A stretch of 64,000 nucleotides of DNA. Origin: Elusimicrobia bacterium HGW-Elusimicrobia-3 (GTDB taxonomy: Bacteria; Elusimicrobiota; Elusimicrobia; Elusimicrobiales; UBA9959). The notes beneath the pieces are model-generated. The model had not been told where the DNA came from. It worked only from the letters and a program-made list of their open reading frames with translations, and did not search any database. The stretch is from contig PHAL01000003.1 in NCBI GenBank assembly GCA_002840355.1, positions 7,808 to 71,807 of the forward strand, in the 5' to 3' direction. Position 1 is the stretch's first letter, and each line of letters begins with the position of its first letter. Positions 28,946 to 58,783 of the stretch are shown here, piece by piece. Both the position numbers and the translations under genes were made by a program.

Positions 28946-28977
28946 CTTACCTTCCTTGTGTTTAGTTTAGGAGCAGG

Positions 28978-29352
28978 CTACAGGCCGAGGGCGGCCTTCA
29001 CCTTGGCGTCTATCTCCTCGAGCGAAAAAGGCTTCTGCACCACGTCGTTGGCGCCGCTGAGCAGGGCGATGCCCTTCTCGCTGGCCGTGTCGCGCGAGGT
29101 CATGATGATGATCTTGGGCCCGTCGGAGCCGTAGCGCGAGGAGATCTCGCTGGCCACGTGATAGCCGTCTATGTAGGGCATCATCACGTCCAGCAGCACC
29201 AGGTCGAACTTCTCGGACTCGGCGGCCTGCAGCGCTTCCTTGCCGTTCACCTTGGCGGTGACGTCGTAGCCGAACCGCTTGAAATAGGATTCAAGCAGGT
29301 CGATCAGGTCCGGATCGTCGTCCGCTATCAGGATCCGCTTTCCACTTTCCAT
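28978..29352 (-). CDS. Stand-alone response regulator receiver domain (CheY-like)
   Basis: ATG 29352 ('MESGKRILIADDDPD...'); conserved DD, 'LLDVMMP' and 'IIIMTS' positions. 124 aa. The start lies 25 nt inside the 3' end of dnaE. Confidence 0.85.
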   Translation of the reverse strand: MESGKRILIADDDPDLIDLLESYFKRFGYDVTAKVNGKEALQAAESEKFDLVLLDVMMPYIDGYHVASEISSRYGSDGPKIIIMTSRDTASEKGIALLSGANDVVQKPFSLEEIDAKVKAALGL

Positions 29353-35721: not shown

Positions 35722-36810
35722 TCAGATCGACCGGGAGCGGCGCAGGCCCCACAGGGAGGCCGCAGCGAAGAGCAGCGCCGGGGCAAAGCCCGCCGCCAGC
35801 GGCGGCAGCAGTTCGGAGTTGCCGGCCTCCTGCGACATGATGATCACGGCCCAGAAGAAGAAACCCAGCCCCACCGACAGGCCGAAATTCATGTAACGGC
35901 TGCTCTTGCCCGAGAGCAGCACCATCGCCGCACCTATCAGCGCCATGGCGGGATTGGCCAGCGGCGCCGCCAGCTTGGCCCAGAACAGCGTGCGCTCCTC
36001 CGCCGAGGGGCTGCCCGCGGCCTGCAGCAGGCGCAACCGCCGCGAGAGGTCCAAGATGGAGATGCCGTCGGGGACCAGCTTGCCCAGCACGATGTTGCCC
36101 GGCGGCACGGCGAGTTCCGAACGGAGGGTTTTGAACCTGGTGAAAGCGGGCTCCCCGCCGGCGCCGTATTCCAGCAGCGTCCCGTCATGGAGGTCCCAGC
36201 GCCCGGCACCGGCGTTCCACGCGGCCGAGGCCGCGTTGATCTCGCGCCAGAGCCGCCCGCCGCGGTAGAAACCGGCCACCACGCCCTGCATCTCCCCGGT
36301 GCGCCCGTCGAAGAGCAGCGCCGAAACGAAGGTCTCCGGCCCGGCCGAGAACACGGCGTCGCGCCGCACCAGGCGCTGCCAGTCGTCGCGGCCGCGCACC
36401 CGCTGCTCGAAGAGGTTCTCCGCGCGCATGTACATGCCGGGGGCGGCGGTCTCCTGCAGCAGGAACTGCCCGGCCCCCACCAGCGCGGAGCAGACCAGCA
36501 GCGGCTTGATCATGTCGAAAGGCTTCCAGCCCCCGGCCAGGCCTGCCTTCCACTCGCCCGTCGCCATCATCCCGCCCAGCGCCGACAGCGCGGCCAGCAG
36601 CGTGGCCAGCGGCGCCATCTTCACGGCGAAGTAGGGCGCCTGGTAGAACATGTAGCGCGCCAGCAGCCAGCCGTCGGAGCCGCCCTTCATGAAGAAGTTC
36701 AGCTTGTCGAACAGGCTGCCGAAGAGCAGCAGCAGGCAGAACACGGCCAGCCCGAAGCCGAAAGGCCCCCAGAAGTTGCGCGCGATGTACCTGTAGAAAA
36801 TTTTATTCAT
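35722..36810 (-). CDS. lptG: LPS export ABC transporter permease LptG (YjgP/YjgQ family)
   Basis: 362 aa, 6-TM YjgP/YjgQ topology with a large periplasmic loop. Second of a tandem pair. Confidence 0.8.
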   Translation of the reverse strand: MNKIFYRYIARNFWGPFGFGLAVFCLLLLFGSLFDKLNFFMKGGSDGWLLARYMFYQAPYFAVKMAPLATLLAALSALGGMMATGEWKAGLAGGWKPFDMIKPLLVCSALVGAGQFLLQETAAPGMYMRAENLFEQRVRGRDDWQRLVRRDAVFSAGPETFVSALLFDGRTGEMQGVVAGFYRGGRLWREINAASAAWNAGAGRWDLHDGTLLEYGAGGEPAFTRFKTLRSELAVPPGNIVLGKLVPDGISILDLSRRLRLLQAAGSPSAEERTLFWAKLAAPLANPAMALIGAAMVLLSGKSSRYMNFGLSVGLGFFFWAVIIMSQEAGNSELLPPLAAGFAPALLFAAASLWGLRRSRSI

Positions 36811-36814
36811 AGGG

Positions 36815-37927
36815 CTACTTGGCGTACAGCCGCCGCTTCCACAGCCACAGCCCGGCGGCGGCGGTCAGCAGGGCGGGCAGGAAGATGGCCCACGGGAACA
36901 GGGCCGCGTATTTGCGGCTCAGCACCATGCCGCTCATCGTCAGGCCGTAGTAGAAGAAAATGATGATCAGGCTCAGCCCGAAGCCGGCCGAACGGCCGCG
37001 CTTGTCCAGCGCCACGCCCAGCGGCGAGCCCACCAGGAAGAAGACCAGGGGCGCCAGCGCCAGCGCGAAACGGGAGGCGGCCTCGATGCGGAACTTGGCC
37101 TCTATCTGCCGGTCCGGCACGCCCTCGCGCAGCTGCGCCAGCAGCGCCGGCGTGGTCATCTCGCGGTGCTTGAACTTGCGCACGGCGGCGCCCTCGGTGA
37201 AGAAAGGCAGCAGCGTCTTATAGGAGGAGAACTCGCCGTAGATGATCTTCTCCCGGTCCTTCATGTCGGTCTGGCTGAACTGTCCCTCGGAGAGTTCCAG
37301 TTCCAGCCCGGTCTCCCCGGCCTTGCGGTACCGCCCTGAGGCGGCGTTGATCTTGTTGATGTACGCCGTGCCCGCGCCCTTTTCGATGCGGCGCAACAGC
37401 TTCACGTCGGACATCTCTCCGGAGATGGAGTTGACGCCGCCGGCGTAGAGCGTCCACTCGGAGAGCTGCTGGAACGTGCGGGGCTTCAGCTCTATCTTGG
37501 TGACGCGGTTGATCATCGTGTTGAGGTAGTCCACGGAGCGCTTCTGCCCCATGGGCCCGAGCCAGTTATTGATGGCGAGCAGCAGCAGCGAACTCAGGAG
37601 AGCCGCGTAGAAGACCCAGGAAAAAATGTCGCCGAAGGAGAAGCCGCCGGCCCGCAGCGCTATGATCTCCCCGTCCTGCGACATCTGGCCCAGGCTCAGC
37701 AGCACCGCCAGCAGGAAGGCCAGCGGCAGCGACATCGCCAGGATATTCGGCAGCATGTAGAACACGGTCTTGGCCAGGAAATAGAAGGAGAAACCGGCCA
37801 GCGCGCCCTGGTTGACGATCTGCACGAAATTCAGCATCACCAGCAGCGAGGCGAAGATGAAAAGTGAAAGACCCAGGAACTTCGCGAAGGTCTTCAATAT
37901 ATAAAGGCGGGCTATAGGCACGGCCAT
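36815..37927 (-). CDS. lptF: LPS export ABC transporter permease LptF (YjgP/YjgQ family)
   Basis: 370 aa with YjgP/YjgQ topology. First of the tandem pair, 4 nt upstream of lptG. Confidence 0.8.
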   Translation of the reverse strand: MAVPIARLYILKTFAKFLGLSLFIFASLLVMLNFVQIVNQGALAGFSFYFLAKTVFYMLPNILAMSLPLAFLLAVLLSLGQMSQDGEIIALRAGGFSFGDIFSWVFYAALLSSLLLLAINNWLGPMGQKRSVDYLNTMINRVTKIELKPRTFQQLSEWTLYAGGVNSISGEMSDVKLLRRIEKGAGTAYINKINAASGRYRKAGETGLELELSEGQFSQTDMKDREKIIYGEFSSYKTLLPFFTEGAAVRKFKHREMTTPALLAQLREGVPDRQIEAKFRIEAASRFALALAPLVFFLVGSPLGVALDKRGRSAGFGLSLIIIFFYYGLTMSGMVLSRKYAALFPWAIFLPALLTAAAGLWLWKRRLYAK

Positions 37928-38058: not shown

Positions 38059-41000
38059 ATGAAGAAGGCCCTGCTCCTGCTGCTCCTGCTCCACCCCGCC
38101 TGCGCCACCGGCGCCGCGGCGGAGGATTTCGCACGGCCGTCCGCGGCCGGCGGCCGCTTCCTGCTGCTCGACCGGCCGGACCCGGCCGTATTGCCGGGCG
38201 TCACCGAGGTCTCCACCGCCGCCGAGGCCGGCGCGGACGAGGGCCTGCCCACCGACATGCCTTTCTCCTACAGCCCCGACTACTGGAACTCCGCGCGCGA
38301 GGCCGTGGAGACCGGCCGCTTCCGCCGGGAGCAGATAGCCCCGGCGCCGCGGGTGGAGGTCTCCACGGAGACCCCGGCCGCGCCCGAGCCGCAGGTGGAA
38401 TTCATAGAGTCCGGCACCACGCTCTCGGTCACGGGCCGCAAGGTCATCGCCGTCAACTACAGCGGCAAGCGCTATATCGCCGAGCAGACCAACTCCAGCC
38501 GCGCGCGCAGCCTGAGCCTGTTCGAGATCACGCAGCAGATGCAGGTGCGCATGCAGGGCAAGGTGGGCCAGAAGATCACCGTCAACGTAGACTACGACGA
38601 CACCAAGGTGGACAAGCAGGACATCTCCGTGGTCTACCAGGGCGACCCCAACGAGGTGGTGCAGAACGTCTCGTTCGGCGACATCGACCTGTCGCTGCCG
38701 GCCACCGAGTTCGTCAGTTACAACAAGCAGCTCTTCGGCATCAGGGCGGACCTGAAGACCCAGCGCCTGAAGTTCACTTTCGTGGGCTCGCGCACCAAGG
38801 GCGAAACCAAGACCAAGCAGTTCACCGGCAACACGCAGTTCCAGAAGGCGGACATCAGCGACATCAGCTACATGCGCCGCAAGTATTACGACCTGACTTT
38901 CGGCAACACCGCCCGCCTGCCCATCAAGAGCAATTCCGAGAAGGTCTACATCGACAGGCAGACCTCGGCCCTGGTGGACAACGTCACCGTCTTCGCGCTG
39001 GACGCCGACGACCTGGCCGTGCAGACCTCCAGTTATACCGGGCGCTTCCAGCTGCTCAACCGCGGCATAGACTACGTGATGGACTACGCCAACGGCATCC
39101 TGACTTTCAACGGCTCGCTGGACCCGGACGATGTGGTGGCCATAGACTTCCAGAACACCAACAGTTCCCTGTTGTCCGTGAACTCCTCCACCTCCACGCT
39201 GGACACCGCCGGCACCGGCCGGCTCAAGCTCCTCAAGGCCAAGGACGACATAGCCATTTCCTCCACCGCCGCGGCTTCGGAGGTCGGCTACCGGCGCGAA
39301 CTTAAAACCTATTACTCCATAGGCCAGACCAATCTGGTGCGCGACAACGGCACCGGCAACTTCTCGCTGAAGGTGCAGGACCTCAGCCATAACGACGTGG
39401 GCTCCTCGCTGAACCCGCAGCAGACCTACGCCGACAGCATCACGGTGGACTTCGAGCAGGGTATCTTCCGCCTGCTCCGCCCTTTCGGCTCCGACGCCGA
39501 CCCCAACGAGCCGGACTCCCAGGTCTACGCGGCCTCCCCCTCCTCCAGGCGGCTGTTCCACGTGGAGTACTCCTACCGTTTCAAGACTTTCATCCTGGAT
39601 TCGGGCATAGTGCTAAATTCCGAGGTGGTGCGCGTGGACGGCGCCAAGTACACCCGCAACTCCGATTACTTTATCGACTACGACTCCGGCTTCATCACCT
39701 TCTACTACCCGGAGAAGATCAACCAGGACTCCAAGATCGACATCACCTACGAGGTCTCGCAGTTCGGCGGCACCGGCAACCAGTCCATAGTGGGCGGCCG
39801 CGCCTCCTACGACTTCGGCAGCCATTTCTCGCTGGGCTCCACCATGCTCTACCAGGGCGGCATCAAGAGCAACACCGTGCCCAACGTGACCGACCTGGTC
39901 AACAGCATGCTGGTCTACGAGGGCGACGCCCAGCTCAAGGGCCTGAACCTGCTGGGCATGAAGGCCTCGCTCGGCGCGGAAGCCGCGCAGTCCAGGACCA
40001 ACCCCAACCTCAACGATTTCGCCCTGATAGACAACATGGAGGGCATCAAGCAGGACGACTCGGCGCCGATGGACAAGAACTACTGGGTGATCGCCGCCAA
40101 CCCCGTGGAAACGCCGGCCGATCCGCGCGCCGTGGTCTGGGCCAACGAGAACGTTAAGGCCAGGGAGATCAACCCGGCCTCCTCCTCCGACGGCAGCCAG
40201 CAGGTGCTGACCATAAGCTACGACTTCAATATCTCCTCCGAAGTGTCGATAGCCTACCCGCTGTCCCCGACCGGCCTGGATTTCTCGCAGAAGAAGGTGC
40301 TGGAGCTGATAGTTTACGGCCAGAACTCTCCGGGCCTGCCCGGCCCCCGGATCAACATCCACTACGGCCAGATCAACGAGGACGCCGACGGCCGCGGCGG
40401 CCAGGACTACACCTGCTCCAGCGGCCTGACCCTCTTCGACTACCCAAAGAGCGAGGACCTGAACTGCGACAGCCAGGTATCGACCAGCGAGGATATCGGC
40501 TGGCTGTACGCGCCCGAGGGCAAGACGAGCATCCGCTACGGCGCCTCCAACGGCCGGCTGGACACGCAGGACCTCAACCAGAACGGCCGCCTGGACGGGC
40601 AGAACTTTACCGGCGGCAGCTTCGGCTATGACAGTGGTTATAAATTCACGGACGCCAACGACGCCAACAATATCAAGGACGTCGTGGATTTCGCCGGCTG
40701 GCATAACCTGTCGCTGCAGCTGCCCATCACCTCCACCGACAGCTACAACTGGAACGCGATCAAGCAGGTGCGCATCTCTCTCAGCCAGGCCACGGGCGGC
40801 GCCACCAGCGGCGTCATCAGGTTCGCCCGCATCTCCGCCGTGGGCAACACCTGGGCCGTGCACGAGAGCACCACCGGCGGCAGCGTACAGCTGTCGGCCC
40901 TCAACAACATCGACAACCCCGGTTACACCCCCATCTACGACGAAGCCGGCGCGGCCGCCACCGTCTTCACTGACCTCTACGGCTCGGTCTCCGAACAGAA

Positions 41001-43389
41001 GGAGAGGACCAAATCCAGCGTGATCAGCGAGCAGACGCTCAAGATCGACTACGCGGCCGTCACCTCCACCTCCACCGGCTATGTCTACCGCACCTTCCCT
41101 CAGGCCGTGGACATCTCCCAGCACGAGACCTTGCGCTTCCTGGTCAAGAACCCCGGCGCGCCAGTCCCCAACGCCAGGTTCTTCATCCGGGCGGGCGGCG
41201 ACGCCAGCTACTTCAAGGCGGCCGTGCCGCTCGACTTCACAGGCTGGCGCCTGATAGAGATCCGGCAGGAGGACCTCAGCGGCGACTCCATCCCCGACGT
41301 GTGGACCAGCGGCTCCCCCTACGCGATCGAGATATCCTCGGCGGGCACGGCCACGCTGCAGCAGGTCTCGCAGTTCCGCGTGGGCGTGGAAGCCGCGGAC
41401 GCCGGCCCCTATTCCGGCACGGTATATTTCAACGAGCTGCACCTTAAGGACCCGATAGCCCGCACCGGCAACGCCCGCAAGGTGGAAGGCGCCTTCGAGG
41501 TGCCCGGCTGGTTCAGTTTCGGCGGCAAACACCGCTATGTCGACCGCAGCTTCCAGACCCCGGTGACGGCCGTCTCCAACCAGGACAGCGAGCAGTCCAG
41601 CGCCTACCTGAACCTGACGCGCCTGTCCTTCTTCCCGGTCAACGTCACGGCTTCGCAGCAGATCACCGTCACCCCCAACGCCGCGGCCACCGGGGCCAAT
41701 AACCTCGTCACCACGCTGCAGGAAGGCCGCGTGAAGAAGTTCGACGGCTCGGCCACCGGCAGCCTCAGCCTGGGCCCGCTGCCCAAGATCGGCCTGAACT
41801 ATACGCGCGGCATCGTCGATTACAGCCTGCTCAACCGCAAGGACGACAAGAACATCTACGCCGCCAACCTGACCTACTCGGTGCCCGGCTCGCTGTTCCT
41901 GCTGCCGCGCACCATCAACGCCAACTACGCGCTGACGCGCAGCCTGGTGGACTACGACGCCGCCAGCCTGGCCAACCCGGCCGGGCTCTACAATACCGAC
42001 GAGCGCACCGACGCCTACGGCGCCAAGCTGGCCTTCGTCCCCTGGAAGGGCTCCACCTTCAACCCGGGCTACACGCTGCAGACGGTGAAGGAGAAGAAGT
42101 CGCAGCTCGCGGACCCGACCGCCTACGAGCGCTACCCGAAGTCCATGCAGCAGACCGCGGACTTCACCTCCAACCTGCTGCTGGCGCGCTGGTTCAACCC
42201 GTCGGTCAACTACTCGGTCTCGACGATAGAGAACAACAACCTCGCCGTCACCACGGTCACCGTGGCGCGGTCCTCCCAGTCCTACACCGCCGGCGAGATC
42301 AAGACCGTCACGCGCAGCGCGCAGGGCGGGGTCAGCCTGACGCTGAGCATGAACGACCTGGCCCCGCGCAACCGCCTGCTGCGTTCCCTGGTCCTCTCCT
42401 CCAACTACCAGATCCAGGACGGCGACTCGTGGTACTACGTGGAGAAGGACTACGACGCCCGCTCCAGGCTGTGGCTGCGCGACTCTTTGGCGCCCAAGAA
42501 CCCCTTCGCGCAGCGCAACTCGCTGACGCTGCGCGACACGATGAGCTCCACGCAGCGCTGGCAGCCTTTCGAGGGCTTCGAGTTCGCGGGGCCGTCGGCC
42601 GCCCTGAAGACCCTCTCGCTGACGAACAACTTCACCAACTCGGTGCAGCGCTCCGAAGTGACGGGGACGGTCTCCAAGAGCGTCAACCGCACCTTCCCGG
42701 ACATGATACTCTCCGTCTCGCAGCTGGAGAACCTGCTGCGCGCCCGCCGCTGGGCCCAGGGAGCCACGATGAACCTGAAGTACTCGCGCAACACCAACGA
42801 GTCCAAGGGCATCTCGCTGGAGACCGCCGGCACCTATGGCATGGACCTGCGCTTCAAGCTGCTCAACGTGATGGATACGGCTTTCAGCTACAACCTGCGT
42901 CTGGGCGACAAGCGGGACCTGCGGGTGGACCAGCTCACGCAGCGCACGCGCCACGACGACGCCACCCTGCAGGGCACTTTCGACCGGGGCAAGATGCGCC
43001 TGACCCCCAAAATAGATTACGCCGCCGACGTCACCAAAGGCGCGCTGGGCGTGGTGACAGCCAACACCCGCACGATCACGCCCAGCATGCTGGTCAAGTC
43101 CGACTTCCAGATGCCCAAGGGGCTCAAGCTGCCGTTCATGAAGCAGGCGATGATCTTCACCAACCGCGTGGTCTGGACCACGACGCTGAGCTACGCCATC
43201 AAGTCGTCGCCGATCACCATCGCCGACAACAGCCGGCTGCTCTCGCTGCTCTCCAACGCCGACTACGAGGCGGCCAAGAACCTGCGCCTGGCCATCAACG
43301 TGGGCCTGCAGCGCTTCTGGCACAAGACCCTCAAGGAGGAGGAATACCTCTCCTACCAGGCGGGCAGCACGCTCACTTTCCAGTTCTAA
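38059..43389 (+). CDS. sprA: SprA/Sov-like giant outer-membrane protein (type IX secretion translocon family)
   Basis: 1776 aa with a signal peptide. 'QMQGKVGQKITVNVDYDDTK...VVQNVSFGDIDLSLP...NKQLFGIRADLKTQRLKFTFVGSRTKGETKT' parallels the conserved SprA N-terminal block as I recall it ('GK.GE...NYNTE..FDF...IEAGNVSMPL...SLFGIKT.LQFGK'). C-terminus is 'LTFQF'. Confidence 0.65.
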   Translation: MKKALLLLLLLHPACATGAAAEDFARPSAAGGRFLLLDRPDPAVLPGVTEVSTAAEAGADEGLPTDMPFSYSPDYWNSAREAVETGRFRREQIAPAPRVEVSTETPAAPEPQVEFIESGTTLSVTGRKVIAVNYSGKRYIAEQTNSSRARSLSLFEITQQMQVRMQGKVGQKITVNVDYDDTKVDKQDISVVYQGDPNEVVQNVSFGDIDLSLPATEFVSYNKQLFGIRADLKTQRLKFTFVGSRTKGETKTKQFTGNTQFQKADISDISYMRRKYYDLTFGNTARLPIKSNSEKVYIDRQTSALVDNVTVFALDADDLAVQTSSYTGRFQLLNRGIDYVMDYANGILTFNGSLDPDDVVAIDFQNTNSSLLSVNSSTSTLDTAGTGRLKLLKAKDDIAISSTAAASEVGYRRELKTYYSIGQTNLVRDNGTGNFSLKVQDLSHNDVGSSLNPQQTYADSITVDFEQGIFRLLRPFGSDADPNEPDSQVYAASPSSRRLFHVEYSYRFKTFILDSGIVLNSEVVRVDGAKYTRNSDYFIDYDSGFITFYYPEKINQDSKIDITYEVSQFGGTGNQSIVGGRASYDFGSHFSLGSTMLYQGGIKSNTVPNVTDLVNSMLVYEGDAQLKGLNLLGMKASLGAEAAQSRTNPNLNDFALIDNMEGIKQDDSAPMDKNYWVIAANPVETPADPRAVVWANENVKAREINPASSSDGSQQVLTISYDFNISSEVSIAYPLSPTGLDFSQKKVLELIVYGQNSPGLPGPRINIHYGQINEDADGRGGQDYTCSSGLTLFDYPKSEDLNCDSQVSTSEDIGWLYAPEGKTSIRYGASNGRLDTQDLNQNGRLDGQNFTGGSFGYDSGYKFTDANDANNIKDVVDFAGWHNLSLQLPITSTDSYNWNAIKQVRISLSQATGGATSGVIRFARISAVGNTWAVHESTTGGSVQLSALNNIDNPGYTPIYDEAGAAATVFTDLYGSVSEQKERTKSSVISEQTLKIDYAAVTSTSTGYVYRTFPQAVDISQHETLRFLVKNPGAPVPNARFFIRAGGDASYFKAAVPLDFTGWRLIEIRQEDLSGDSIPDVWTSGSPYAIEISSAGTATLQQVSQFRVGVEAADAGPYSGTVYFNELHLKDPIARTGNARKVEGAFEVPGWFSFGGKHRYVDRSFQTPVTAVSNQDSEQSSAYLNLTRLSFFPVNVTASQQITVTPNAAATGANNLVTTLQEGRVKKFDGSATGSLSLGPLPKIGLNYTRGIVDYSLLNRKDDKNIYAANLTYSVPGSLFLLPRTINANYALTRSLVDYDAASLANPAGLYNTDERTDAYGAKLAFVPWKGSTFNPGYTLQTVKEKKSQLADPTAYERYPKSMQQTADFTSNLLLARWFNPSVNYSVSTIENNNLAVTTVTVARSSQSYTAGEIKTVTRSAQGGVSLTLSMNDLAPRNRLLRSLVLSSNYQIQDGDSWYYVEKDYDARSRLWLRDSLAPKNPFAQRNSLTLRDTMSSTQRWQPFEGFEFAGPSAALKTLSLTNNFTNSVQRSEVTGTVSKSVNRTFPDMILSVSQLENLLRARRWAQGATMNLKYSRNTNESKGISLETAGTYGMDLRFKLLNVMDTAFSYNLRLGDKRDLRVDQLTQRTRHDDATLQGTFDRGKMRLTPKIDYAADVTKGALGVVTANTRTITPSMLVKSDFQMPKGLKLPFMKQAMIFTNRVVWTTTLSYAIKSSPITIADNSRLLSLLSNADYEAAKNLRLAINVGLQRFWHKTLKEEEYLSYQAGSTLTFQF

Positions 43390-43419: not shown

Positions 43420-44151
43420 ATGAAGAAGGGGACGATACAAAAAGCCGGGAAATGGCTGCTGAACGCGCTGCTGCCGCGCGCCTGCGCGCATTGCGGCACG
43501 GACCTGCATTACCTGGAGTCGGCCCCGCTGTGCCCGGCTTGCGCGGCGCGGCTGGAGCCCCTGCCGGAGCTGGTCTGCGCCGCCTGCGGCCTGCCGCTGC
43601 CCGACGGCGGCGCCACCTGCCGCGACTGCCGCGGGCGCGGCCCGGGGCAGCTGGACCTGGCGCGCTCGGCCTTCGTCTTTAACCCGGAGCTGCGCTCCCT
43701 GCTGCACTCGTTCAAGTACCGCGCCCGCGAGGACCTGGCCGCCTGGCTGGGGAGCGAGATGGCGCGCTCTTTTACCCGTTTCCCGGAGCTGGCGGATTAT
43801 TCTTTCGCGGCCGCGGTGCCGCTGCACCCGGCGCGCAGCCGGGAGCGCGGCTTCAACCAGGCCGAGCTGCTGGCCGCGGCGCTGGCGGAGCGGGCCAATT
43901 TATTCCTGCTGCGCGGGGCGGCCCGGCGGCGCAGGAACACCCCCACGCAGACCGCGCTGTCGCGCGATAAGCGCAGGGTGAACATGGCCGGGGCCTTCGA
44001 GGTGGCGGACCCGGCGCTGGTGCAAGACAGGAAGATCCTGCTGATAGACGACGTGGCCACCACGCTGTCCACGCTCGACGAGCTGGCCCGGGAGTTCCGG
44101 AAGGCCGGCGCCAAAGCAGTGGCAGCTTACACCCTAGCGCGAGAGCCGTAA
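43420..44151 (+). CDS. comF: ComF family protein (phosphoribosyltransferase domain)
   Basis: N-terminal Cys-rich zinc-finger-like 'CAHCG..CPAC..CAACG..CRDC'. C-terminal PRTase motif 'ILLIDDVATTLSTL'. Confidence 0.85.
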   Translation: MKKGTIQKAGKWLLNALLPRACAHCGTDLHYLESAPLCPACAARLEPLPELVCAACGLPLPDGGATCRDCRGRGPGQLDLARSAFVFNPELRSLLHSFKYRAREDLAAWLGSEMARSFTRFPELADYSFAAAVPLHPARSRERGFNQAELLAAALAERANLFLLRGAARRRRNTPTQTALSRDKRRVNMAGAFEVADPALVQDRKILLIDDVATTLSTLDELAREFRKAGAKAVAAYTLAREP

Positions 44152-44320
44152 GTCGGGCAGGGGCTTGGCCCCTCGCTCCTGGACTGCAGGGAACCGTTGC
44201 GCGGTTCCCCCCCGAAGCGGGGCCCCCCTTCCCCAAAGTCGCTCGGAACCAAACCCCTGCCCGCCCCGCCACACACGCGCGGAACCAGCCACCTCCCCGT
44301 CCTGACCAACTAATGTAAAA

Positions 44321-44349
44321 GAAAAAGCCGGCTTGGGAGCCGGCTTTTC
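44321..44349. terminator. Bidirectional hairpin terminator between comF and the GH13 gene
   Basis: gaaaa-agccggct(tggg)agccggct-tttcc. A/T runs flank an 8-bp stem. Confidence 0.7.
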
Positions 44350-44366
44350 CTGTTTGTGGGGCGGGG

Positions 44367-49472: not shown

Positions 49473-52400
49473 CTAGATAGCGCCGCCTGCCATGGTCGCC
49501 AGGCTGCCGGCGTTCACAGTGCCCGTGGAGACCACCACTTTCTGGCTGCAATCCGCGCAGTAGTAGATCTCCCCTTCCATTTCAGGCGTATACCCCAGGA
49601 GCGTGGCCCTATCCTTGCTCGGCAGGGCCAGCTTGCCCTGTACCCCCACCGCGCCCTCAAAGATATTTATAGAGTCGGCCCCCCGGGAAAGCAGGTTAAA
49701 GTTATCCCCGGAGCCCTGGGTGCTGTGGTCTTCTATCAGCAGCGCTGTGTTGTTCACAATGGCGCCGCCGGTAACGTCCGGGGGCAGTATCACCACGCCG
49801 TAATGCTCGTTTATAGTGCCGGCCGACTGGTAATTCTGCACGAAGACACCGGAGACGTTCTCCACTGTGCCGGCCCCCTCTACCATCGCCCCGGAACGCA
49901 CGCCGATCACGTTGGGGAAGTTGAAGGCGCCGGCATTGCTGCCGTGAAAATCTCCGCCGACCACCGTCTGGTCGGCGTTGAGGTGAGAATCAGGTTCAAC
50001 GGTCGCCATCACGGCTATGCCGGTGTTTTCCGCGCCTATCCCGGTGGCGGAGAAAGTGTTCTCTATCAGCAGCACCCGCTCCGAAGAGGGGCCAAGGGCG
50101 GCGTTGCCCATGTATATACCGGAGTTTATCCCCAGCGTGCCCACGTTGGAGATATTGTAGCCGCCCATGTCCAGGTCGGCGCCCCCCCCTCCCCCGGAAC
50201 CGCAGTCCGCGTCCTTGACGCCCAGCGTACCTTCCGCCGTAGCGTAAACGCAGCGGTTACCGATCCCGGCCAGCGCCGTGTTCAGCAGGCTGCCCTCGAT
50301 ATACAGCGTAGACGCCGGCACTATGGAGGAAACGTTGACGATGTTATACGTGTTCATGTCGAAGTGGGCTATGGCCGGGTTGGCCATGCCCACGCCGGCG
50401 GGCACGTTGAACAGACCGGAGCCGTCACCGTAGAACCTGGTGGCGTACACGCCGCCCGCGCCTGTCAGGCGAATCACTGGCGAGACTCCGGTGGAAACCA
50501 TCACCATATCCCCGGCGTAGCCGGCCGCCGAGGAGATGTGCAGGCTGGCGGCCGGAAATGTCTCGCCTATCACCAGCGGGCCGTTGGAGAACATGGCCCC
50601 GCCCGCGGCGAAGATGTCGCCTCCCACGAACAGCGAGGTGGAGAAGGCGATGCCGGGCTCCGAGGGTGAACCCACAATGGTGGAGACATTGATCATCCAG
50701 TTGCCGGCCAGGTCCAGGGCCTGCGTGGCCGTGTGATCGCCCAGGCCCCCGGTGCCGCTGACGCCGGTCAGCGCCGAGCCGTCGCCGTAATACTTGGCGG
50801 CCGAGGCTATGCCCACCACGTAAATATTACTGCTCACGTAGACGCCGCCGTTGAAGGCCGGCGCGGAAGAAGAAACCTCCACTTCAGGGGCCAGGGCCAG
50901 GCGCGGGGAGGTCAGGCCGTCCGCGGCCGCTACTGACAGGCTGCCGGCGAAAGCGTTGTCGGCGGCGTCCAGCAGGGGCACGTTGGCCGACAGCCGCGCG
51001 TCGGGCAGGGCGCCGGAGGTGAGCGCCGCGGCGCTGAGGTTGCGCAGGGCCGAGCCGTCGGCGTGCAGCAACCCGGAGGCCGTCATCGTGGCCTGGACCA
51101 GGCCGGCGTTGTTGCGCCAGAATTGTATGTAGCCGCCCTGCTCGCCCAGCACGTCCAGGCGCGCCGCCGGGGCGCCGGTGCCTACGCCGGCGTTGCCGGC
51201 GCTGTCCACGAAGAAACCCTCCGGATCCCCGTCGCCAGAGATCCAGTTGGAGCCGGTGATCAGGTCCTGCGTGAGCGTGTGGTCGCCCAGGTCGTCGTCG
51301 CCGCCTATGTTGCTGAGGGCGGAGCCGTCGCCGTAGTACTTGGCTCCGGCCGGCAGGTAGACATGCGTGGAAACGTAGACGCCGCCTTGGAAAGCGGCGG
51401 TCGCCGAGGAAAGGTCTACGCCGGGGGCCAGCGCCAGCCGCGGGGCGCCCACGCCCTGCGCGCCCGTCACCGTGACCGAGGAGGCGTTCAGGAGCTGGTT
51501 GCCGGCCAGGTTCAGCGCCTGTGAGGCGGTATGCCCGCCCAGGCCGTCGCCGGAAATATTGCGCAATCCGGCGCCGTCGGCGTAGATCACGCCGCCGGCG
51601 GAGACCGAAGCCATGATAACGCCGAACTGGTTGCGCCAGATCTGAGAGTAGGGCGCCGCGGGGACGGTCAGCACGTCCAGCCTGGCCTCGGGAATCTCGG
51701 TGCCGGCGCCTATATTGCCGTCGTTGCGCACCTTGAAGATAGTGAAACCCGTAAAATTCTCGGCGAGGAAGGCGTTCTCGGTATCGTCGTCAGTATTGGC
51801 CCGCACCAGCAGTTTACTGGTCCCGGCATTAGACTGGCCTATGGCCACGCTGGACGCGGCTTCCACGGTGTATACGCTGTTGCCGGCCACTCCCCACAGG
51901 GCGGAAGTGTCTACGAAATAAGACCCGTTGAGCGTGACCCAGTTCGAGCCGTTATACCCTTCGAAAGAGGCACCGTTGTAGCGGATAGAGCCCGGGACAT
52001 TGAGCGCGCTGTCGCCCACCCTGACCGCGCCGTTGACGTCGAGCCGCTGCAGCGGGAGGGCCGTGCCGATACCGACATTGCCGTCGGCCACCACCAGGCC
52101 GGAGGAAACCAGGACGCCTGGCAGGGTGGCGTGCTGTATGGAAAAAGTCGCGCTGGAAACGAAAGTGTTGGCCTGCGCCAGCCCGGCGTAGCCGGCCGCC
52201 GCGTGGTCGCCCCAGGCGACGGCCCCGTTCCAGGCGGCGCGCTCGCCTGCCAGGATGGCGTAAGCCGGGTGCGCGATAAAGACCGGGTCGGCCTCGGCTA
52301 TATTGGTCAGGCCGGAGCCGTCGGCGTACAGCACGCCCGCGGCGGTCATCGTGGCCACGGCCGCGCCGGCCGCGCTGCGCCAGATCTGGGAATTGCCGGC

Positions 52401-53747
52401 CACGGCGCCGCGCACGTCCAGGCGCGCCTCCGGCGCGTTGGTGCTCACGCCAACATTGCCGCCGGCGTCCACGAAAAGGCCTTCACTGCCGCCGTCGCCG
52501 GAATACCAGAACGCGCCGGCCGCGAGATTCTGCGCCAGCGTATGGTTGCCGAGGCCGTCGCCCAGGGCGCCCGCGGGCAGCCCGCGCAGGCCGGAGGCCG
52601 CCGCGTACAATACGCCGGTGGCGCTCATGGAAGCCTGCACCACCCCGCCGTCGTCGCGCCAGATCTGGGCGTAACCGCCGGCGTCCCCGCGCACGTCCAG
52701 CCGCGCGCCGGGGGCGGCCTGGCCCACGCCCACGTTGCCCGCGGCGTCCACGGCCAGGCCCTCGCCGTCGCCGTCGCCGGACACCCAGTTCGCGCCCAGC
52801 ACCAGGTTCTGCGTCAGCGTGTGGTCGCCCAGATCGTCGGAGCCGCTGACCCCGGTCAGACCGGAGCCGTCGCCGTAATACTTGGCGCCGGCGGCCAGGT
52901 AGACATGGCTGGAAACATAGAGCCCGCCGTAATGGGCGGCGGCAGAGGATGAAAGCGAGACCGCCGCGTTCAGGCCCACCGAGGGCGCGGAGACTATGCG
53001 CCGGCCGGCCATATTGAGGTCCTGCGTGGCTGTGTGCGAGCCCAGACCGTCGCCGGAGATATTGCGCAGGCCGGCCGCGTCGGCGTAGAGCGTGCCGCCC
53101 GCGGTCATGGAGGCCACGATGACCCCGCCGGAATTCCGCCAGAACTGAGAGTAGGAGTCCGCCGCGGCCGCCTGCACGTCCAGCCGGGTCTGCGGGCCCG
53201 CCAGGCCCAGGCCGGCGTAGCCGGTGCCGGTCAGCACGGCGTGCTGGCCCGAAGCGGCCCAGCCGGGCGCGGTGCGCTGCACGGTGTTGTCGGTATAAAC
53301 GACGCCCCTGCTGCCCGCCGCCCCGGAGAGCTTCAGGTCGCCGTTATTGACGGTGAAGGTGCCGGTGGAGGCTTCGGCCGTGACCGAGTGCAGGGAGTAG
53401 ACCGAGGAATAGAGAGGCTCCGGCTGCAGCCAGCCGCCGTCGAGGCTCATCATGACGTAAGGGGTTATATCTTTCCAGGGTATGGCCGCGAAAGTCTCCT
53501 CGTCAGGAGTGCCGAGCGGGTAGCGGAACAGGCCTGTGGAAACCACAACATCCGTGGAACCGGAATTCCAGTACTCCGCGGCGCCGGAGGCGTCCGTTAT
53601 CTTGAACTCCATCGCTACCGTGCCGTTGAACAGCCGGCCGTCCTTGCGCAGCGTGCCCTGGTAGCTTATCAGGCCCGGCGAGGCGGCGTAAGCCCCCCCG
53701 GCCAACAGCCCGGCCAGCGCGGCCGCTAAAATGGATATTTTTTTCAC
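49473..53747 (-). CDS. 1,424-aa secreted repeat fibre / adhesin-like protein (tail-fibre-type 'GNVGIG..AP.ARLDV' and 'YYGDGS.LT' repeats)
   Basis: GTG start with GAGGTGA 4 nt upstream. Signal peptide 'ILAAALAGLLAGGAYA'. Many Gly/Ala-rich repeats and a beta-helix-like C-terminal third. Confidence 0.8.
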   Translation of the reverse strand: MKKISILAAALAGLLAGGAYAASPGLISYQGTLRKDGRLFNGTVAMEFKITDASGAAEYWNSGSTDVVVSTGLFRYPLGTPDEETFAAIPWKDITPYVMMSLDGGWLQPEPLYSSVYSLHSVTAEASTGTFTVNNGDLKLSGAAGSRGVVYTDNTVQRTAPGWAASGQHAVLTGTGYAGLGLAGPQTRLDVQAAAADSYSQFWRNSGGVIVASMTAGGTLYADAAGLRNISGDGLGSHTATQDLNMAGRRIVSAPSVGLNAAVSLSSSAAAHYGGLYVSSHVYLAAGAKYYGDGSGLTGVSGSDDLGDHTLTQNLVLGANWVSGDGDGEGLAVDAAGNVGVGQAAPGARLDVRGDAGGYAQIWRDDGGVVQASMSATGVLYAAASGLRGLPAGALGDGLGNHTLAQNLAAGAFWYSGDGGSEGLFVDAGGNVGVSTNAPEARLDVRGAVAGNSQIWRSAAGAAVATMTAAGVLYADGSGLTNIAEADPVFIAHPAYAILAGERAAWNGAVAWGDHAAAGYAGLAQANTFVSSATFSIQHATLPGVLVSSGLVVADGNVGIGTALPLQRLDVNGAVRVGDSALNVPGSIRYNGASFEGYNGSNWVTLNGSYFVDTSALWGVAGNSVYTVEAASSVAIGQSNAGTSKLLVRANTDDDTENAFLAENFTGFTIFKVRNDGNIGAGTEIPEARLDVLTVPAAPYSQIWRNQFGVIMASVSAGGVIYADGAGLRNISGDGLGGHTASQALNLAGNQLLNASSVTVTGAQGVGAPRLALAPGVDLSSATAAFQGGVYVSTHVYLPAGAKYYGDGSALSNIGGDDDLGDHTLTQDLITGSNWISGDGDPEGFFVDSAGNAGVGTGAPAARLDVLGEQGGYIQFWRNNAGLVQATMTASGLLHADGSALRNLSAAALTSGALPDARLSANVPLLDAADNAFAGSLSVAAADGLTSPRLALAPEVEVSSSAPAFNGGVYVSSNIYVVGIASAAKYYGDGSALTGVSGTGGLGDHTATQALDLAGNWMINVSTIVGSPSEPGIAFSTSLFVGGDIFAAGGAMFSNGPLVIGETFPAASLHISSAAGYAGDMVMVSTGVSPVIRLTGAGGVYATRFYGDGSGLFNVPAGVGMANPAIAHFDMNTYNIVNVSSIVPASTLYIEGSLLNTALAGIGNRCVYATAEGTLGVKDADCGSGGGGGADLDMGGYNISNVGTLGINSGIYMGNAALGPSSERVLLIENTFSATGIGAENTGIAVMATVEPDSHLNADQTVVGGDFHGSNAGAFNFPNVIGVRSGAMVEGAGTVENVSGVFVQNYQSAGTINEHYGVVILPPDVTGGAIVNNTALLIEDHSTQGSGDNFNLLSRGADSINIFEGAVGVQGKLALPSKDRATLLGYTPEMEGEIYYCADCSQKVVVSTGTVNAGSLATMAGGAI
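51033..51716 (-). repeat. Internal protein-level duplication unit B of the fibre gene (aa ~678-905)
   Basis: See unit A. The DNA copies are diverged (by eye roughly three quarters identical), so this is not a recent duplication or an assembly artefact. Confidence 0.75.
52563..53219 (-). repeat. Internal protein-level duplication unit A of the fibre gene (aa ~177-395)
   Basis: Collinear with aa ~678-905: 'RLDV...YSQ(F/I)WRN..GVI.AS..AGG.(L/I)YAD.AGLRNISGDGLG.HTA.Q.LN.AG...AKYYGDGS.L....G.DDLGDHTLTQ.L..G.NW.SGDGD.EG..VD.AGN.GVG..AP.ARLDV'. Confidence 0.75.
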
Positions 53748-53751
53748 AATC

Positions 53752-54573
53752 TCACCTCTTGCCGGGCGCCGCCGCCCGGGTCCTGGCCAGCTCGAGGTAG
53801 TACAGCGCCTCGTCGTTATCGTCGTCGGAATCCAGCTCTTTTTCCAGCAGCTCTATCGCCCCGGCCCACTGCCTTCTACCGTAAAGCGACAGGGCCTCCC
53901 GCAGGTTCGCGTGCCGCAGCTTCAGGCCCGCCTCCAGGCCGCGCAGTTTCTGGGCCTTCTTCAGCTGGGCCTCGGTCTCGCCGGCCGAGCGCACCCCGCC
54001 GTAGAGAGACTGGCGCTCGGACACCCTGTTGAACTGCAGCGCGGCCAACATCCTGCTGTCCGCCTCGCCGCGGCCCTCCGCGAGGTACGGGTAATGTTTC
54101 TTCACCGTTTTAAAAAAGATGCCCCTGATCCTGGCGTCGGCGGCGGCCAGCGCTTCCGCGTTGTCGGAGTAAACGGGAAAAATCACGAGCAGCCGCTCGT
54201 AGGCAGCCACGGCTTCCGCGGCGGTGTCCGGGTCGGCGGCCAGTGAGCAAGCCAGGGCGAACTCTTCCTCCCAGGCACCCATCCGGCGCTCGCGGGCGGC
54301 GTTCATCTCGTCGCGGCGCTCGCGGGCCCGCCGCGCCTCGTCGAGCAGCGAATCCCTTTCCCTGGCCGCTACGCCGCGCTCCGAAGCGGCCGCCCGGCCC
54401 GCCGCAGTTTTCAGGCGCGAGCGCGCCGCGGCGTCGGAGGAATCGGCCAGCACGGCGTCCATGAGCTTTATCACCTCGGCCCTGCGCTGGTCGGCGGCGG
54501 CGGTCTGCGCTCGCAGAGGGCAGGCGCAGGCCAGCAGCGCCGCCGCGGCGGCGGCAAGGCGCGAGGGGCGCAT
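53752..54573 (-). CDS. Hypothetical secreted all-helical protein (Arg/Ala/Glu-rich, TPR-like C-terminus)
   Basis: Signal peptide 'AALLACACPLRAQ'. The start shares 1 nt with the upstream stop (TAATG), and the gene ends 4 nt before the fibre gene. Confidence 0.6.
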   Translation of the reverse strand: MRPSRLAAAAAALLACACPLRAQTAAADQRRAEVIKLMDAVLADSSDAAARSRLKTAAGRAAASERGVAARERDSLLDEARRARERRDEMNAARERRMGAWEEEFALACSLAADPDTAAEAVAAYERLLVIFPVYSDNAEALAAADARIRGIFFKTVKKHYPYLAEGRGEADSRMLAALQFNRVSERQSLYGGVRSAGETEAQLKKAQKLRGLEAGLKLRHANLREALSLYGRRQWAGAIELLEKELDSDDDNDEALYYLELARTRAAAPGKR

Positions 54574-55715
54574 TACCCGGGGTCCTCCAGCTTTAAGCGG
54601 GCGCGCCGCATCAGTTCCAGCGCGTCCTTATAGCCGGGGTCGGCGGTCAGCGCCTCATTGAGCAGCAGCACCGCCTCGTAATAACGTTTTTCCTTCAGCA
54701 GGCCGCGGGCCTGCTCCGTCTTGCGCACGGCCTCCTCCTGCTCCACGCTGAGATGGCGGGTGACCGCCACCGGCCTGTCGAACTTGTAGGAGAGGGCGAA
54801 GCGGTGGGCCGGCCCGAACTTGCCATAGGAGGAAAGAGAGTAGTCGAACTGCAGCAGCTTCATCACCAGGCCGCCGCCCAGCCGCAGACCGCCGCCGAGG
54901 TCCTCGCCGGAAACGTAGCCGGCCCGCACCGAGACCGCCCGCCAGACCTGGTACTCGGCCCCGGCGCAGAGCACGGCGCCGGCGTCTTTCTGCTGCCTGA
55001 CGTCGGCCGAAAAAGTAATGGGGTCTCCCGCAGCCAGCATGATATACGAGGCCCCGGCCCTGAAGACGGAGGGCGCCGGGCCGGTCTCGGAGTCGAATTT
55101 AAAGCCCTGTCCCACGGATTGGGCCGAGACGCCCAGCGCCAGCGTGCCGGCGGGCCGCCGCTTTATCCAGAGCAGCCCGGCGTCGGCCAGGGCCGCCGCG
55201 GCGGAAACCCCGTCCAGTTCCTCGCGAGCGTACTTGAGCGTGATTCCGGCGAAAAGGCCGGACAGCCTGTCCTGCCAGGGCCCGGCCAGGCGCGCCGCGT
55301 AGCTCAGGCCGGCGGCCAGGCTTCCCGCCTCCACGCCGCCGGCGGCCGCCCCGGAATTGTCATACCCGTCGATGCCGGGGACGCTAAGCGCCAGCACGGA
55401 GACCGCGGCCGCGCCGTAGCGCAGAGGCTGCGCGTAAGCGGCCTGCTGCGAATTGATCCCCTCCAGCCAGGAGTTATAGGTGAAAGCCGCTTCCTTGTAG
55501 GCCGTGCGGCCCAGCGCCGCCGGGTTGATCGCCAGCGCGCCCAGCAGGTCGCCGTAGCCGCCCGCGCCGGACTCGCCCATGCCTACGGCCCTCGGGCTCT
55601 GCACGATGCGCAGGAATTCGCCGCCGGAGGTGCCGGCTCCCGCCGCGGCGCTGCCGGCCGCGCAGAGCAGCGCGCAGCAGGCGGAGAAGAGTTTGAGTGC
55701 CAGATTATTTTTCAT
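54573..55715 (-). CDS. PorV/PorQ-like outer-membrane beta-barrel with C-terminal TPR-like helical tail
   Basis: Signal peptide. N-terminal 'GGEFLRIVQSPRAVGMGESGAGG...LAINPAALG' resembles the PorV/PorQ (also UPF0164) signature. The barrel ends '...FALSYKF', then ~70 aa of helical tail ('KEKRYYEAVLLLNEALTADPGYKDAL'). Confidence 0.55.
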   Translation of the reverse strand: MKNNLALKLFSACCALLCAAGSAAAGAGTSGGEFLRIVQSPRAVGMGESGAGGYGDLLGALAINPAALGRTAYKEAAFTYNSWLEGINSQQAAYAQPLRYGAAAVSVLALSVPGIDGYDNSGAAAGGVEAGSLAAGLSYAARLAGPWQDRLSGLFAGITLKYAREELDGVSAAAALADAGLLWIKRRPAGTLALGVSAQSVGQGFKFDSETGPAPSVFRAGASYIMLAAGDPITFSADVRQQKDAGAVLCAGAEYQVWRAVSVRAGYVSGEDLGGGLRLGGGLVMKLLQFDYSLSSYGKFGPAHRFALSYKFDRPVAVTRHLSVEQEEAVRKTEQARGLLKEKRYYEAVLLLNEALTADPGYKDALELMRRARLKLEDPG

Positions 55716-55719
55716 CCGA

Positions 55720-57048
55720 TTATTTTATTACCACCAGTTTGCCCGTCTTCCTGCTGGAGCCGGAAGTGACTTCCCACAGGTAGACGCCGCTGGCCACGGT
55801 CTGGCCGGAGGAATTTTTCAGGTCCCATTTCATCGACGGGGGCGCCGCTTGCAGCTCGCGCACCAGCGCCCCGGTGACGGTATAGATGCGGATCTTGCCG
55901 TAGGCCGGCAGGTTGGTGAAGGTTATCAGGTCGGCCCAGCTGCCGTACCTGGCCGCGTCGCCGGCGCCCGGCCTGAAAGGGACAGGGTAGGCATAGACCG
56001 GGCTCAGGTCCGCGTCCGGCACGGCCAGCAGGGCATAGTCCGAAAAATGAGAGACGGTCTGCGACACGGTCCTGGCGGCGCTGTCCACAAGAGCGCCGGC
56101 CTGGCGGACCCAGAGCCCTTTAGCCTCGTCGAGGCGCCAGACCGCCAGCGCGGAAGTCTTCAGCCGGGCGAGGGAACCGTCCACCAGCCCGTCGCCGTCG
56201 GCGTCGGCATAGGGCAGCGTCACCACGCAGGCGGAATTGGGCTGTATAGTGTTGCCGGCCGCGTCGTAGGGCGTCACGCTGAGCGTGCGCAAGAACTCGG
56301 GCGAGCCCGGCAGCGCGGCCAGCCTGGAGTTGGCTTCCCTGATCTCGGCGCGGGCGGCGTCCGTGGAGAGGGCCACGAAGAAGTCTTGCGGGTAGGCGTT
56401 GGCCGGGATGCGCACGCGCGCGGCGCGGTCGGAGAAAGCCGCGGCGGTATTGTCGGCCTGGTGGTCCATGATGACCGAGAAATACACGGTCGAGGCCGGC
56501 GCGAGCGGGGAACCGCTGACGTCGGCGATGGAAGAGGAAAAGCTGACGGCGAAGACCCCGCCCTTGGGCCAGGAGTCCTGCGGCGAGACCACCAGCTTGC
56601 TGCCCGAGTAGCCCACCGTGACCGTCCAGGTGGAATTCACGGCGTTGCCGGCGTTGTCGTAAACCTGCGTCACCGTAATTCCGTGGTCGGAGATCTCCCC
56701 GGCTATCTCGCCGCCGAAAACCAGGTCCAGGGTTTCCCCCGGCGTCATGCCCCACAGCCCGCCGTCGGCCAGCACCGAGGAGGTGGACGCGAGGGCGGCC
56801 AGCCCGGGGCTGACCACTTCGGCCGGCACCAGCGAGAGGTAGCCGGACCAGACTGAGGACGGCGCGGAAACCAGCAGACCGCCGCTGGCGCAATTATCAC
56901 CCACGGTGTAGGACAGGTCATAGGCCCCGGTAGAGGCGCTGACTACGGCCAGCGGAGCGTCGGAGGAGCGGATCTTCTCCCAGGCGCAGCTGGCGCCGGC
57001 CGGGAACAGGGGCAGGAGGAGCAATAAGAGGAGCGGGCTTTTTATCAT
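55720..57048 (-). CDS. Secreted Ig-like (Big_5/SbsA-type) protein with C-terminal T9SS type-A sorting / FlgD-Ig-like domain
   Basis: Signal peptide. C-terminal ~90 aa 'VYAYPVPFRPG...ITFTNLPAYGKIRIYTVTGALVREL...WDLKNSSGQTVASGVYLWEVTS...GKLVVIK' fits the Por_Secre_tail/FlgD_ig pattern. Confidence 0.65.
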   Translation of the reverse strand: MIKSPLLLLLLLPLFPAGASCAWEKIRSSDAPLAVVSASTGAYDLSYTVGDNCASGGLLVSAPSSVWSGYLSLVPAEVVSPGLAALASTSSVLADGGLWGMTPGETLDLVFGGEIAGEISDHGITVTQVYDNAGNAVNSTWTVTVGYSGSKLVVSPQDSWPKGGVFAVSFSSSIADVSGSPLAPASTVYFSVIMDHQADNTAAAFSDRAARVRIPANAYPQDFFVALSTDAARAEIREANSRLAALPGSPEFLRTLSVTPYDAAGNTIQPNSACVVTLPYADADGDGLVDGSLARLKTSALAVWRLDEAKGLWVRQAGALVDSAARTVSQTVSHFSDYALLAVPDADLSPVYAYPVPFRPGAGDAARYGSWADLITFTNLPAYGKIRIYTVTGALVRELQAAPPSMKWDLKNSSGQTVASGVYLWEVTSGSSRKTGKLVVIK

Positions 57049-57146
57049 ATCCGGTCAACCGGCCGAGAAGGCGCGATAATATACCCGTTTATTATATAAA
57101 ACGGGCGACGGAGTATAGGGATAAATGTCAACGCGGGGTTAACCTG

Positions 57147-58402: not shown

Positions 58403-58448
58403 AACCCCTCCGCCGACTAGCTAAATTGATTCTATTATTTTTCCGGCC

Positions 58449-58480: not shown

Positions 58481-58499
58481 CCGTTGTGCGGAAACCCGT

Positions 58500-58761: not shown

Positions 58762-58783
58762 CTGTATAGCAAAGCCTATAATA

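Follow-up and report, generated by a model that had tools for sequence, protein, structure and literature searches.

Introduction

The closest described systems to the locus examined here are built around SprA of Flavobacterium johnsoniae and Sov of Porphyromonas gingivalis, the outer-membrane translocons of the type 9 protein secretion system (T9SS). The solved SprA has 2,403 amino acids (aa), and proteins of this kind usually fall in a range of ~2,300-2,500 aa. The N-terminus of SprA folds only inside SkpA (PMC10994853), and PorZ stays anchored on PorQ (PMC7463736). Genes of the T9SS are said to be confined to Bacteroidota and a few other phyla of the Fibrobacteres-Chlorobi-Bacteroidetes (FCB) group (PMC11285876, PMC4793230). 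Here we describe a gene for a compact SprA/Sov homolog, the sprA-like gene, in a 64,000-nucleotide stretch of DNA (the window) from Elusimicrobia bacterium HGW-Elusimicrobia-3 (assembly GCA_002840355.1, contig PHAL01000003.1, positions 7,808 to 71,807 of the forward strand). In the NCBI taxonomy the Elusimicrobiota stand directly under Pseudomonadati and outside the FCB group, so that a T9SS-type gene is indeed present outside Bacteroidota, as a first-pass annotation made from the sequence had proposed.

SprA is known as a kind of translocon. New are its compact architecture as the norm of a very large unannotated clade, and the occurrence of an SprA-type translocon, together with carriers and cargo, in Elusimicrobiota as well as in metagenome-assembled genomes (MAGs) labelled Desantisbacteria, Aerophobetes and Caldisericota. 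Our literature search, whose full-text coverage excludes most subscription journals, turned up no work in which Elusimicrobia are connected with SprA or T9SS components. In our view the product of the sprA-like gene is probably the outer-membrane translocon in a type 9-like export pathway, a compact SprA/Sov that works with PorV-like carriers.

Results

An intact and conserved sprA-like gene

The sprA-like open reading frame (ORF) starts with ATG and runs over 1,776 codons, with exactly the coordinates given in the first-pass annotation. The gene and its parts are as follows (pLDDT, predicted local distance difference test; TMt, TM-score normalized to the target).

38059..43389, plus strand: sprA-like gene, compact SprA/Sov homolog, giant outer-membrane beta-barrel protein (ORF, TIGR04189, profiles, Foldseek, dN/dS)
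38059..38118, plus strand: Sec-type signal peptide, residues 1-20, putative cleavage after AAA (read from sequence)
38119..38412, plus strand: N-terminal periplasmic tail, residues 21-118, predicted unstructured except for a helix at 73-85 (pLDDT 27-60)
38422..38895, plus strand: conserved SprA N-terminal block, residues 122-279, with the first barrel strands (TIGR04189, SprA 160-291)
38896..39783, plus strand: first extramembrane insert, residues 280-575 (strands short for the most part, pLDDT 75-92)
39784..40002, plus strand: four barrel strands, residues 576-648 (both models; 521-598 aligns to SprA 701-778)
40003..41409, plus strand: second extramembrane region, residues 649-1117 (invariant columns, Foldseek, SprA 1310-1403)
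40975-41268, plus strand: CBM11-like jelly-roll, residues 973-1070 (Foldseek local match to CBM11 6r3m, TMt 0.61)
41410..43386, plus strand: C-terminal barrel region, residues 1118-1776, ~28 long strands, ending in the beta-signal ...STLTFQF (DSSP, Foldseek)

This is a genuine gene that is under purifying selection across Elusimicrobiota. The ratio of nonsynonymous to synonymous substitution rates (dN/dS) was 0.11-0.12 against the two closest genomes, with dS unsaturated, and the GC content at third codon positions (0.93) was on par with that of other genes in the window (GC ~0.63-0.67; ~64% for the window). A signal peptide and a C-terminal LTFQF had been claimed for the protein, and both can be read in the sequence. 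The N-terminus, MKKALLLLLLLHPACATGAAA followed by EDF, reads as a Sec signal peptide that is probably cleaved after AAA. Cys14 was considered as a lipoprotein site and rejected, as this cysteine is unconserved in the family consensus and there is no lipobox. At the other end the protein terminates in ...AGSTLTFQF, of which Q1775 and F1776 are invariant in aligned homologs (alignments of 20 and of 82 sequences), and an aromatic final residue is found in nearly all distant relatives too. Within the tail that follows the signal peptide, the helix at 73-85 contains or adjoins the residues W76, E84 and G86, which are invariant in an alignment of eight sequences (W76 and G86 also in that of 20). By analogy only, the disordered tail recalls the SkpA-bound N-terminus of SprA (PMC10994853).

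Homology to SprA

The NCBIfam model of the T9SS translocon Sov/SprA (TIGR04189) matched residues 122-279 at its positions 99-256, with E=8e-38 and 129.4 bits. A single-sequence phmmer search of the Protein Data Bank (PDB) with the whole protein returned nothing. When 20 family members were combined into a profile (A1), F. johnsoniae SprA alone was matched (6H3I/6H3J and the 8GL series, E=3e-18), in four blocks that follow the same order in both proteins: residues 149-279 with SprA 160-291, 521-598 with 701-778, 977-1061 with 1310-1403, and 1089-1165 with 1469-1546. A broader profile that includes distant relatives (A5) extended this match to SprA 147-1894 at E=1e-68, and no PDB protein other than SprA was matched by either profile; the superfamily alignment used comprised 36 sequences. 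The first block bears out the earlier claim of an N-terminal segment collinear with SprA. The conserved block of residues 122-279 is the densest run of invariant residues of the family, and the first long strands belong to it (120-138, 151-169 onward). Judged from these profiles, the protein is homologous to F. johnsoniae SprA over most of its length.

Scores with TIGR04189 grade continuously through the relatives, from 129 bits here over 150-186 bits in several of them to 265 bits in a 2,196-aa protein (P0213), which passes the model and at the same time scores 415 bits on the profile of the compact sprA-like family. Because of these intermediates, the protein is to be seen as a divergent member of the SprA superfamily and not as a chance resemblance: it is a divergent relative of SprA/Sov, not an 'equivalog'.

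Predicted fold and barrel size

AlphaFold was run on two overlapping halves (residues 577-1776 and 21-1200), each with an alignment of 82 sequences. The model of residues 577-1776 (m95f7766bb53f) had a mean pLDDT of 86.8, with values mostly of 85-96 in the C-terminal barrel region. In a Foldseek search against the PDB its top four matches were SprA chains, with E=5e-40 to 8e-34 and TM-scores normalized to the query (TMq) of 0.54-0.59; the best match other than SprA was LptD (E=4e-6, TMq 0.15). The model of residues 21-1200 (pLDDT 79) likewise had SprA as its top four matches (E=6e-48 to 2e-34, TMq 0.42-0.43), and the best other match reached E=4e-7. For both halves the prediction, made with good confidence, is thus the fold of SprA, a giant single-chain beta-barrel with extramembrane beta-sandwich inserts. 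LptD-like, TonB-dependent and SlpA-like readings were rejected on these Foldseek margins. The first-pass annotation had allowed for an unrelated barrel of the LptD, BamA, TamB or TonB-dependent type; both predicted halves match SprA and none of these.

Long strands assigned by DSSP number ~28 in residues 1118-1774, where they are joined by very short loops, plus four in 578-648 and four to six in 120-245. The four central strands (578-586, 590-599, 616-631 and 634-648) are identical in the two independent models. Added up over the two models, we estimate ~36-38 long strands, which would make a barrel of full size in which loops and inserts are trimmed.

Where the protein is shorter than SprA

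The protein has 1,776 aa and the solved SprA 2,403, a difference of 627 aa (26%) that places it outside the usual size range. Between the anchors of profile A1, the deficit amounts to ~11 aa before the first block, ~168 aa in the first insert (residues 280-520; anchors 279/291 and 521/701), ~153 aa in the second extramembrane region (residues 599-976), ~47 aa around residues 1062-1088 and ~246 aa after residue 1165 (611 aa here versus 857 in SprA). The missing quarter is therefore spread over inserts and barrel loops and does not seem to be a lost quarter of the barrel. The earlier statement that about a quarter of the length is lacking is correct, and ~36-38 strands are estimated to remain. 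With barrel loops and both large inserts shortened in this way, partner sites for accessory proteins of the Bacteroidota system may be absent from the compact protein.

The second extramembrane region carries an invariant cysteine pair (C786/C803). It also contains Asp/Asn/Gly-rich loops (EDADGRGG and DTQDLNQNGRLDGQ) that, by their sequence, look like calcium-binding loops; EDADGRGG aligns to a similar motif of SprA. The jelly-roll in this region gave the sole Pfam match of the protein, CBM_11 (E=8e-5, below cutoff), and explains why some relatives bear the UniRef name 'CBM11 domain-containing protein'. The match is no evidence of carbohydrate binding: the jelly-roll aligns to a segment of SprA and belongs to the family scaffold.

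Spread of the compact family

Full-length homologs number more than 120, with identities of 49-95%; the closest are 95% identical proteins of 'Elusimicrobia bacterium GWB2_63_16'. All named homologs are called 'hypothetical protein'. A scan with one genome per species gave 199 relatives, the best 80 of which all come from Elusimicrobia/Elusimicrobiota MAGs (two at 94% identity), and full-length homologs also occur in MAGs labelled Desantisbacteria, Aerophobetes and Caldisericota. When 1.84 billion representative proteins were searched with the N-terminal profile, 1,964 clusters were matched, 627 of them at E<=1e-30. Complete family members have 1,553-2,486 aa, and compact length is the norm for this very large family and not peculiar to the gene in the window.

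A distant SprA-like protein, P0262 (2,486 aa, from the MAG 'bacterium', MEW5767629.1), matches the T9SS protein PorG in an N-terminal segment, residues 168-239 (NF052316, E=2e-11), and may be a natural PorG-SprA fusion. In Bacteroidota, PorG forms a small barrel and is joined to GldK by a disulfide.

Candidate carrier and cargo genes

Two genes of T9SS-related families, with two neighbours, lie further along the window (CTD, C-terminal domain).

54573..55715, minus strand: outer-membrane barrel of the PorV/PorQ family, 380 aa, C-terminal tail helical (NF033709, 105 bits, cutoff 90)
55720..57048, minus strand: secreted protein of 442 aa carrying a type A T9SS CTD at residues 375-442, nucleotides 55723-55926 (TIGR04183, 26.1 bits, cutoff 23)
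53752-54573, minus strand: 273-aa helical protein (no family match)
49473-53747, minus strand: 1,424-aa repetitive, surface-fibre-like protein (no family match)

The 380-aa barrel is a candidate carrier or anchor protein. It scored higher with the PorQ model (73.5 bits) than with that for PorV (34.1 bits), and neither score reaches the respective equivalog cutoff. A single-sequence search gave no PDB match; at NCBI, some of its homologs in Elusimicrobia already carry the name 'PorV/PorQ family protein'. The 442-aa protein, which ends in ...GVYLWEVTSGSSRKTGKLVVIK, is a candidate cargo or surface partner. It matched the PorZ C-terminus model (E=1e-12), and the best PDB match of its CTD was the CTD region of P. 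gingivalis PorZ (5m11_A, E=2e-4).

Both belong to a minus-strand cluster of six genes (49473-58402), which encode proteins of 103 aa and 315 aa, the 442-aa CTD protein, the PorV/PorQ-like barrel, and the 273-aa and 1,424-aa proteins. The last two had no family or PDB match. The 1,424-aa protein has no CTD and its gene no DNA tandem repeats; the protein has internal repeats with the motif RLDV...YSQIWRN...LYAD, and it may be a surface fibre anchored via the PorQ/PorZ-like pair. The same order recurs in another Elusimicrobia contig (L083), with a 332-aa protein, a 446-aa CTD protein, a PorV-like barrel, and proteins of 262 aa and 2,110 aa.

In two loci of much more distant relatives such genes lie next to the sprA-like gene itself. 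Locus L086, with a 1,682-aa homolog, reads M6 protease with CTD, PorV/PorQ protein (203 bits), lptG, lptF, sprA-like gene, comF and argS, and after argS come a PorV/PorQ protein with TPR (136 bits) and a Kelch protein with CTD. In L088 (1,622 aa; the named members of its cluster are Ca. Desantisbacteria), two barrels of PorV/PorP-like type and a CTD-bearing S8 protease (29.7 bits) immediately precede lptGF and the sprA-like gene. The association of carrier and cargo genes with sprA-like genes is recurrent, not universal. A tblastn search with the PorV-like and CTD proteins of the window found nothing in 82 related loci, a result that is uninformative because in the closest genomes these genes lie beyond the 10-kb flanks. 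A narrow hidden Markov model of the CTD, built on three orthologs, yielded no additional CTDs when run on 1.58 Mb of loci and is too insensitive to count cargo.

A different neighbour occurs in L087 (14963-22630; the one named member of its cluster is Ca. Aerophobetes), where the gene for a 1,567-aa SprA-like protein is directly followed by that for a 2,555-aa protein with fn3/Big repeats, which looks like a giant adhesin. An NCBIfam scan of this adhesin-like protein and of one 425-aa neighbour found no CTD and no PorV family.

As for the remainder of a T9SS, none of PorL/M (GldL/M), PorK/N (GldK/N), PorG and PorW/SprE was found among the window genes scanned, whole genomes not having been searched for motor or hub. 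No PorU was seen either: matches to the PorU model came from cargo CTDs and were confined to its CTD portions, and no PorU search of genomes was made.

Conserved neighbours and alternative functions

The immediate neighbours of the sprA-like gene are of other kinds (LPS, lipopolysaccharide).

35722..37927, minus strand: lptG and lptF, LPS export permeases, divergent from the sprA-like gene (PF03739, E=3e-61 and 1e-65)
43420..44151, plus strand: comF-like gene, double zinc ribbon and phosphoribosyltransferase, 30 bp downstream (Pfam, NCBIfam)

The gene had been placed between lptFG and comF and apart from other T9SS genes. The first half of this stands; the second holds for the immediate neighbours only, the PorV/PorQ and CTD genes being found 11 kb downstream. 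No terminator-like site was found between the sprA-like ORF and the comF-like gene, and a hairpin follows comF at 44320-44351, so that the two genes are probably co-transcribed. The divergent lptG-lptF/sprA-like arrangement is kept in 52-58 of the 82 loci and is also found in three distant relatives (L085, L086, L088). The sprA-like/comF pairing is kept in 56 of the 82 and in L085 and L086, while L088 ends before the position of comF. This order of lptG-lptF, sprA-like gene and comF persists at ~20-30% identity, including at one SprA that scores above the TIGR04189 cutoff.

Such persistence lends some weight to the idea that an SprA-derived barrel was recruited to outer-membrane or LPS biogenesis together with LptFG, for instance as an LptD-like exit pore or an envelope scaffold, and does not serve secretion; LptD is also the best non-SprA Foldseek match of the C-terminal half. 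However, the LptD matches are 34 orders of magnitude weaker than those to SprA and extend over only a small part of the model (TMq 0.15 versus 0.56), neither Pfam nor NCBIfam finds an LptD family in the protein, and carrier and CTD-cargo genes accompany the sprA-like gene in several lineages. Synteny with housekeeping genes need not imply a common function, and we regard this role as unlikely.

Slightly less likely still is a large outer-membrane pore for another use, be it DNA uptake with the ComF-like protein or the import of large substrates. The closeness and conservation of comF fit such a pore, as does the CBM11-like jelly-roll in the extracellular part, but scans of the window found no competence pilus or secretin genes adjacent, and the jelly-roll region aligns to SprA itself and is thus part of the family scaffold. 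ComF-type proteins, moreover, are cytoplasmic. Homology, fold and the nearby carrier and cargo genes favour type 9-like export over this use.

That the gene is a relic of a lost T9SS, with no specific function now, would fit its score below the SprA family cutoff and the absence of reports of a complete T9SS outside FCB phyla (PMC4793230, PMC11285876), but is largely refuted by the conservation data (an intact 5.3-kb ORF, near-constant length in hundreds of genomes, dN/dS of ~0.11, many invariant residues), and we give it next to no credence.

Several observations also weigh against a translocon of a type 9-like pathway, which we nevertheless prefer. The truly conserved neighbours of the gene are lptFG and comF and not T9SS genes, and the carrier/cargo pair of the window, with its single CTD protein, stands at a distance. 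In the precomputed Pfam lists of the loci, which were the only source for L001, L002 (both Elusimicrobia) and L085, no PorV-family gene lies within ~10 kb of the sprA-like gene in these three, and none does so in L087. The count of ~36-38 strands comes from two partial models and not from one closed barrel. TXSScan recorded no complete T9SS outside Bacteroidetes (PMC4793230). Finally, the first-pass annotation had suggested searches with two family models: TIGR04189 does match, yet its 129.4 bits fall below the curated cutoff of 200, and Pfam SprA_N (PF14349) has no match at E<=0.1. Among the relatives, precomputed SprA_N matches exist only in P0104 and in P0213, where the match is marked weak. 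The below-cutoff score and the missing SprA_N match presumably account for the 'hypothetical' annotations.

Other contents of the window

A long region for polysaccharide or LPS biosynthesis occupies 2068-20735, with WecA-like and RmlD genes, an aminotransferase, several glycosyltransferases, a carbamoyltransferase-like gene and epimerases. Within it, at 14154-17101, two genes for B12-binding radical SAM proteins lie next to each other; they match HpnJ and BchE best, with scores that fall far short of the cutoff in both cases. Under the length and GC3 filter, no ORF was called in 6940-8545, 28464-29328 and 58402-59764.

Discussion

If the sprA-like protein is the translocon of a type 9-like pathway, its operation can be pictured from the F. 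johnsoniae structures (PMC10994853, PMC7463736), from which we infer the following transport steps. The protein itself would be exported by Sec and inserted by the barrel assembly machinery (BAM) via its C-terminal ...TFQF, forming a capped barrel of ~36 strands. Cargo bearing a CTD, having folded in the periplasm after Sec export, would enter this barrel, and a PorV/PorQ-like carrier docked there would capture its CTD with its loops. Cargo and carrier would then exit laterally, the cargo being freed or kept on its own carrier, as PorZ is on PorQ.

A bolder idea, which we put forward tentatively and hold to be possible at best, is that Elusimicrobiota and neighbouring candidate phyla have a minimal, possibly ancestral type 9 secretion, made up of a compact SprA and dedicated PorV/PorQ-like carriers encoded beside CTD cargo, without a GldKLMN-type motor, hub or sortase. 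Were this so, ejection of carrier and cargo would be spontaneous or otherwise driven. The machine of Bacteroidota would be a later elaboration, in which added loops and inserts dock Plug, the peptidyl-prolyl isomerase (PPI), SkpA/SprE and the energy chain, and the deeply conserved lptFG/sprA/comF order would show where in the genome the translocon originally resided.

With these results the known distribution of type 9 secretion becomes wider, at least for its outer-membrane module. The results also provide a natural "minimal SprA", 26% shorter with a seemingly full barrel, which points to loops and inserts being dispensable for the core; the trimmed segments are probably Bacteroidota-specific partner sites. 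This makes it testable whether the proton-driven energy chain is intrinsic to SprA-type transport or a later addition. In practical terms, hundreds of "hypothetical" proteins of 1,550-2,200 aa could be re-annotated.

Among known proteins, LptD and SlpA are also large single-chain barrels, with 26 strands in LptD, which has a beta-jellyroll at its N-terminus, and 30 in Deinococcus SlpA. They share with the present case weak Foldseek matches and, for LptD, the adjoining lptFG genes; they differ in that their matches reach only E=4e-6 or weaker and TMq 0.15-0.22, versus 5e-40 and 0.56 for SprA, and that there is no match to their sequence families. Type B cargo and dedicated carriers of Bacteroidota (PMC12635249) are encoded side by side, a trait shared with the pairs of the window, L083, L086 and L088. 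Compared with PorQ-PorZ, the barrel of the window resembles PorQ more closely than PorV, and the adjoining protein has a CTD most like that of PorZ, whereas the 442-aa protein has no beta-propellers (442 aa versus 757 positions in the PorZ model) and the barrel carries an extra helical or TPR-like tail that sets it apart from PorQ and PorV.

The comparison with SprA/Sov (6H3I, 6H3J, 8GL6, 8GL8) goes furthest. The sprA-like protein differs from these in its shorter length, its score below the TIGR04189 cutoff, its host outside the FCB group and its conserved lptFG/comF neighbourhood. It resembles them in collinear homology and in predicted fold, SprA being the only strong structural match, and also in the signal peptide, the C-terminal aromatic beta-signal and the unstructured N-terminal tail. 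PorV-family and type A CTD genes occur in the vicinity of the sprA-like gene, and the 36 strands of SprA/Sov compare with the ~36-38 estimated here.

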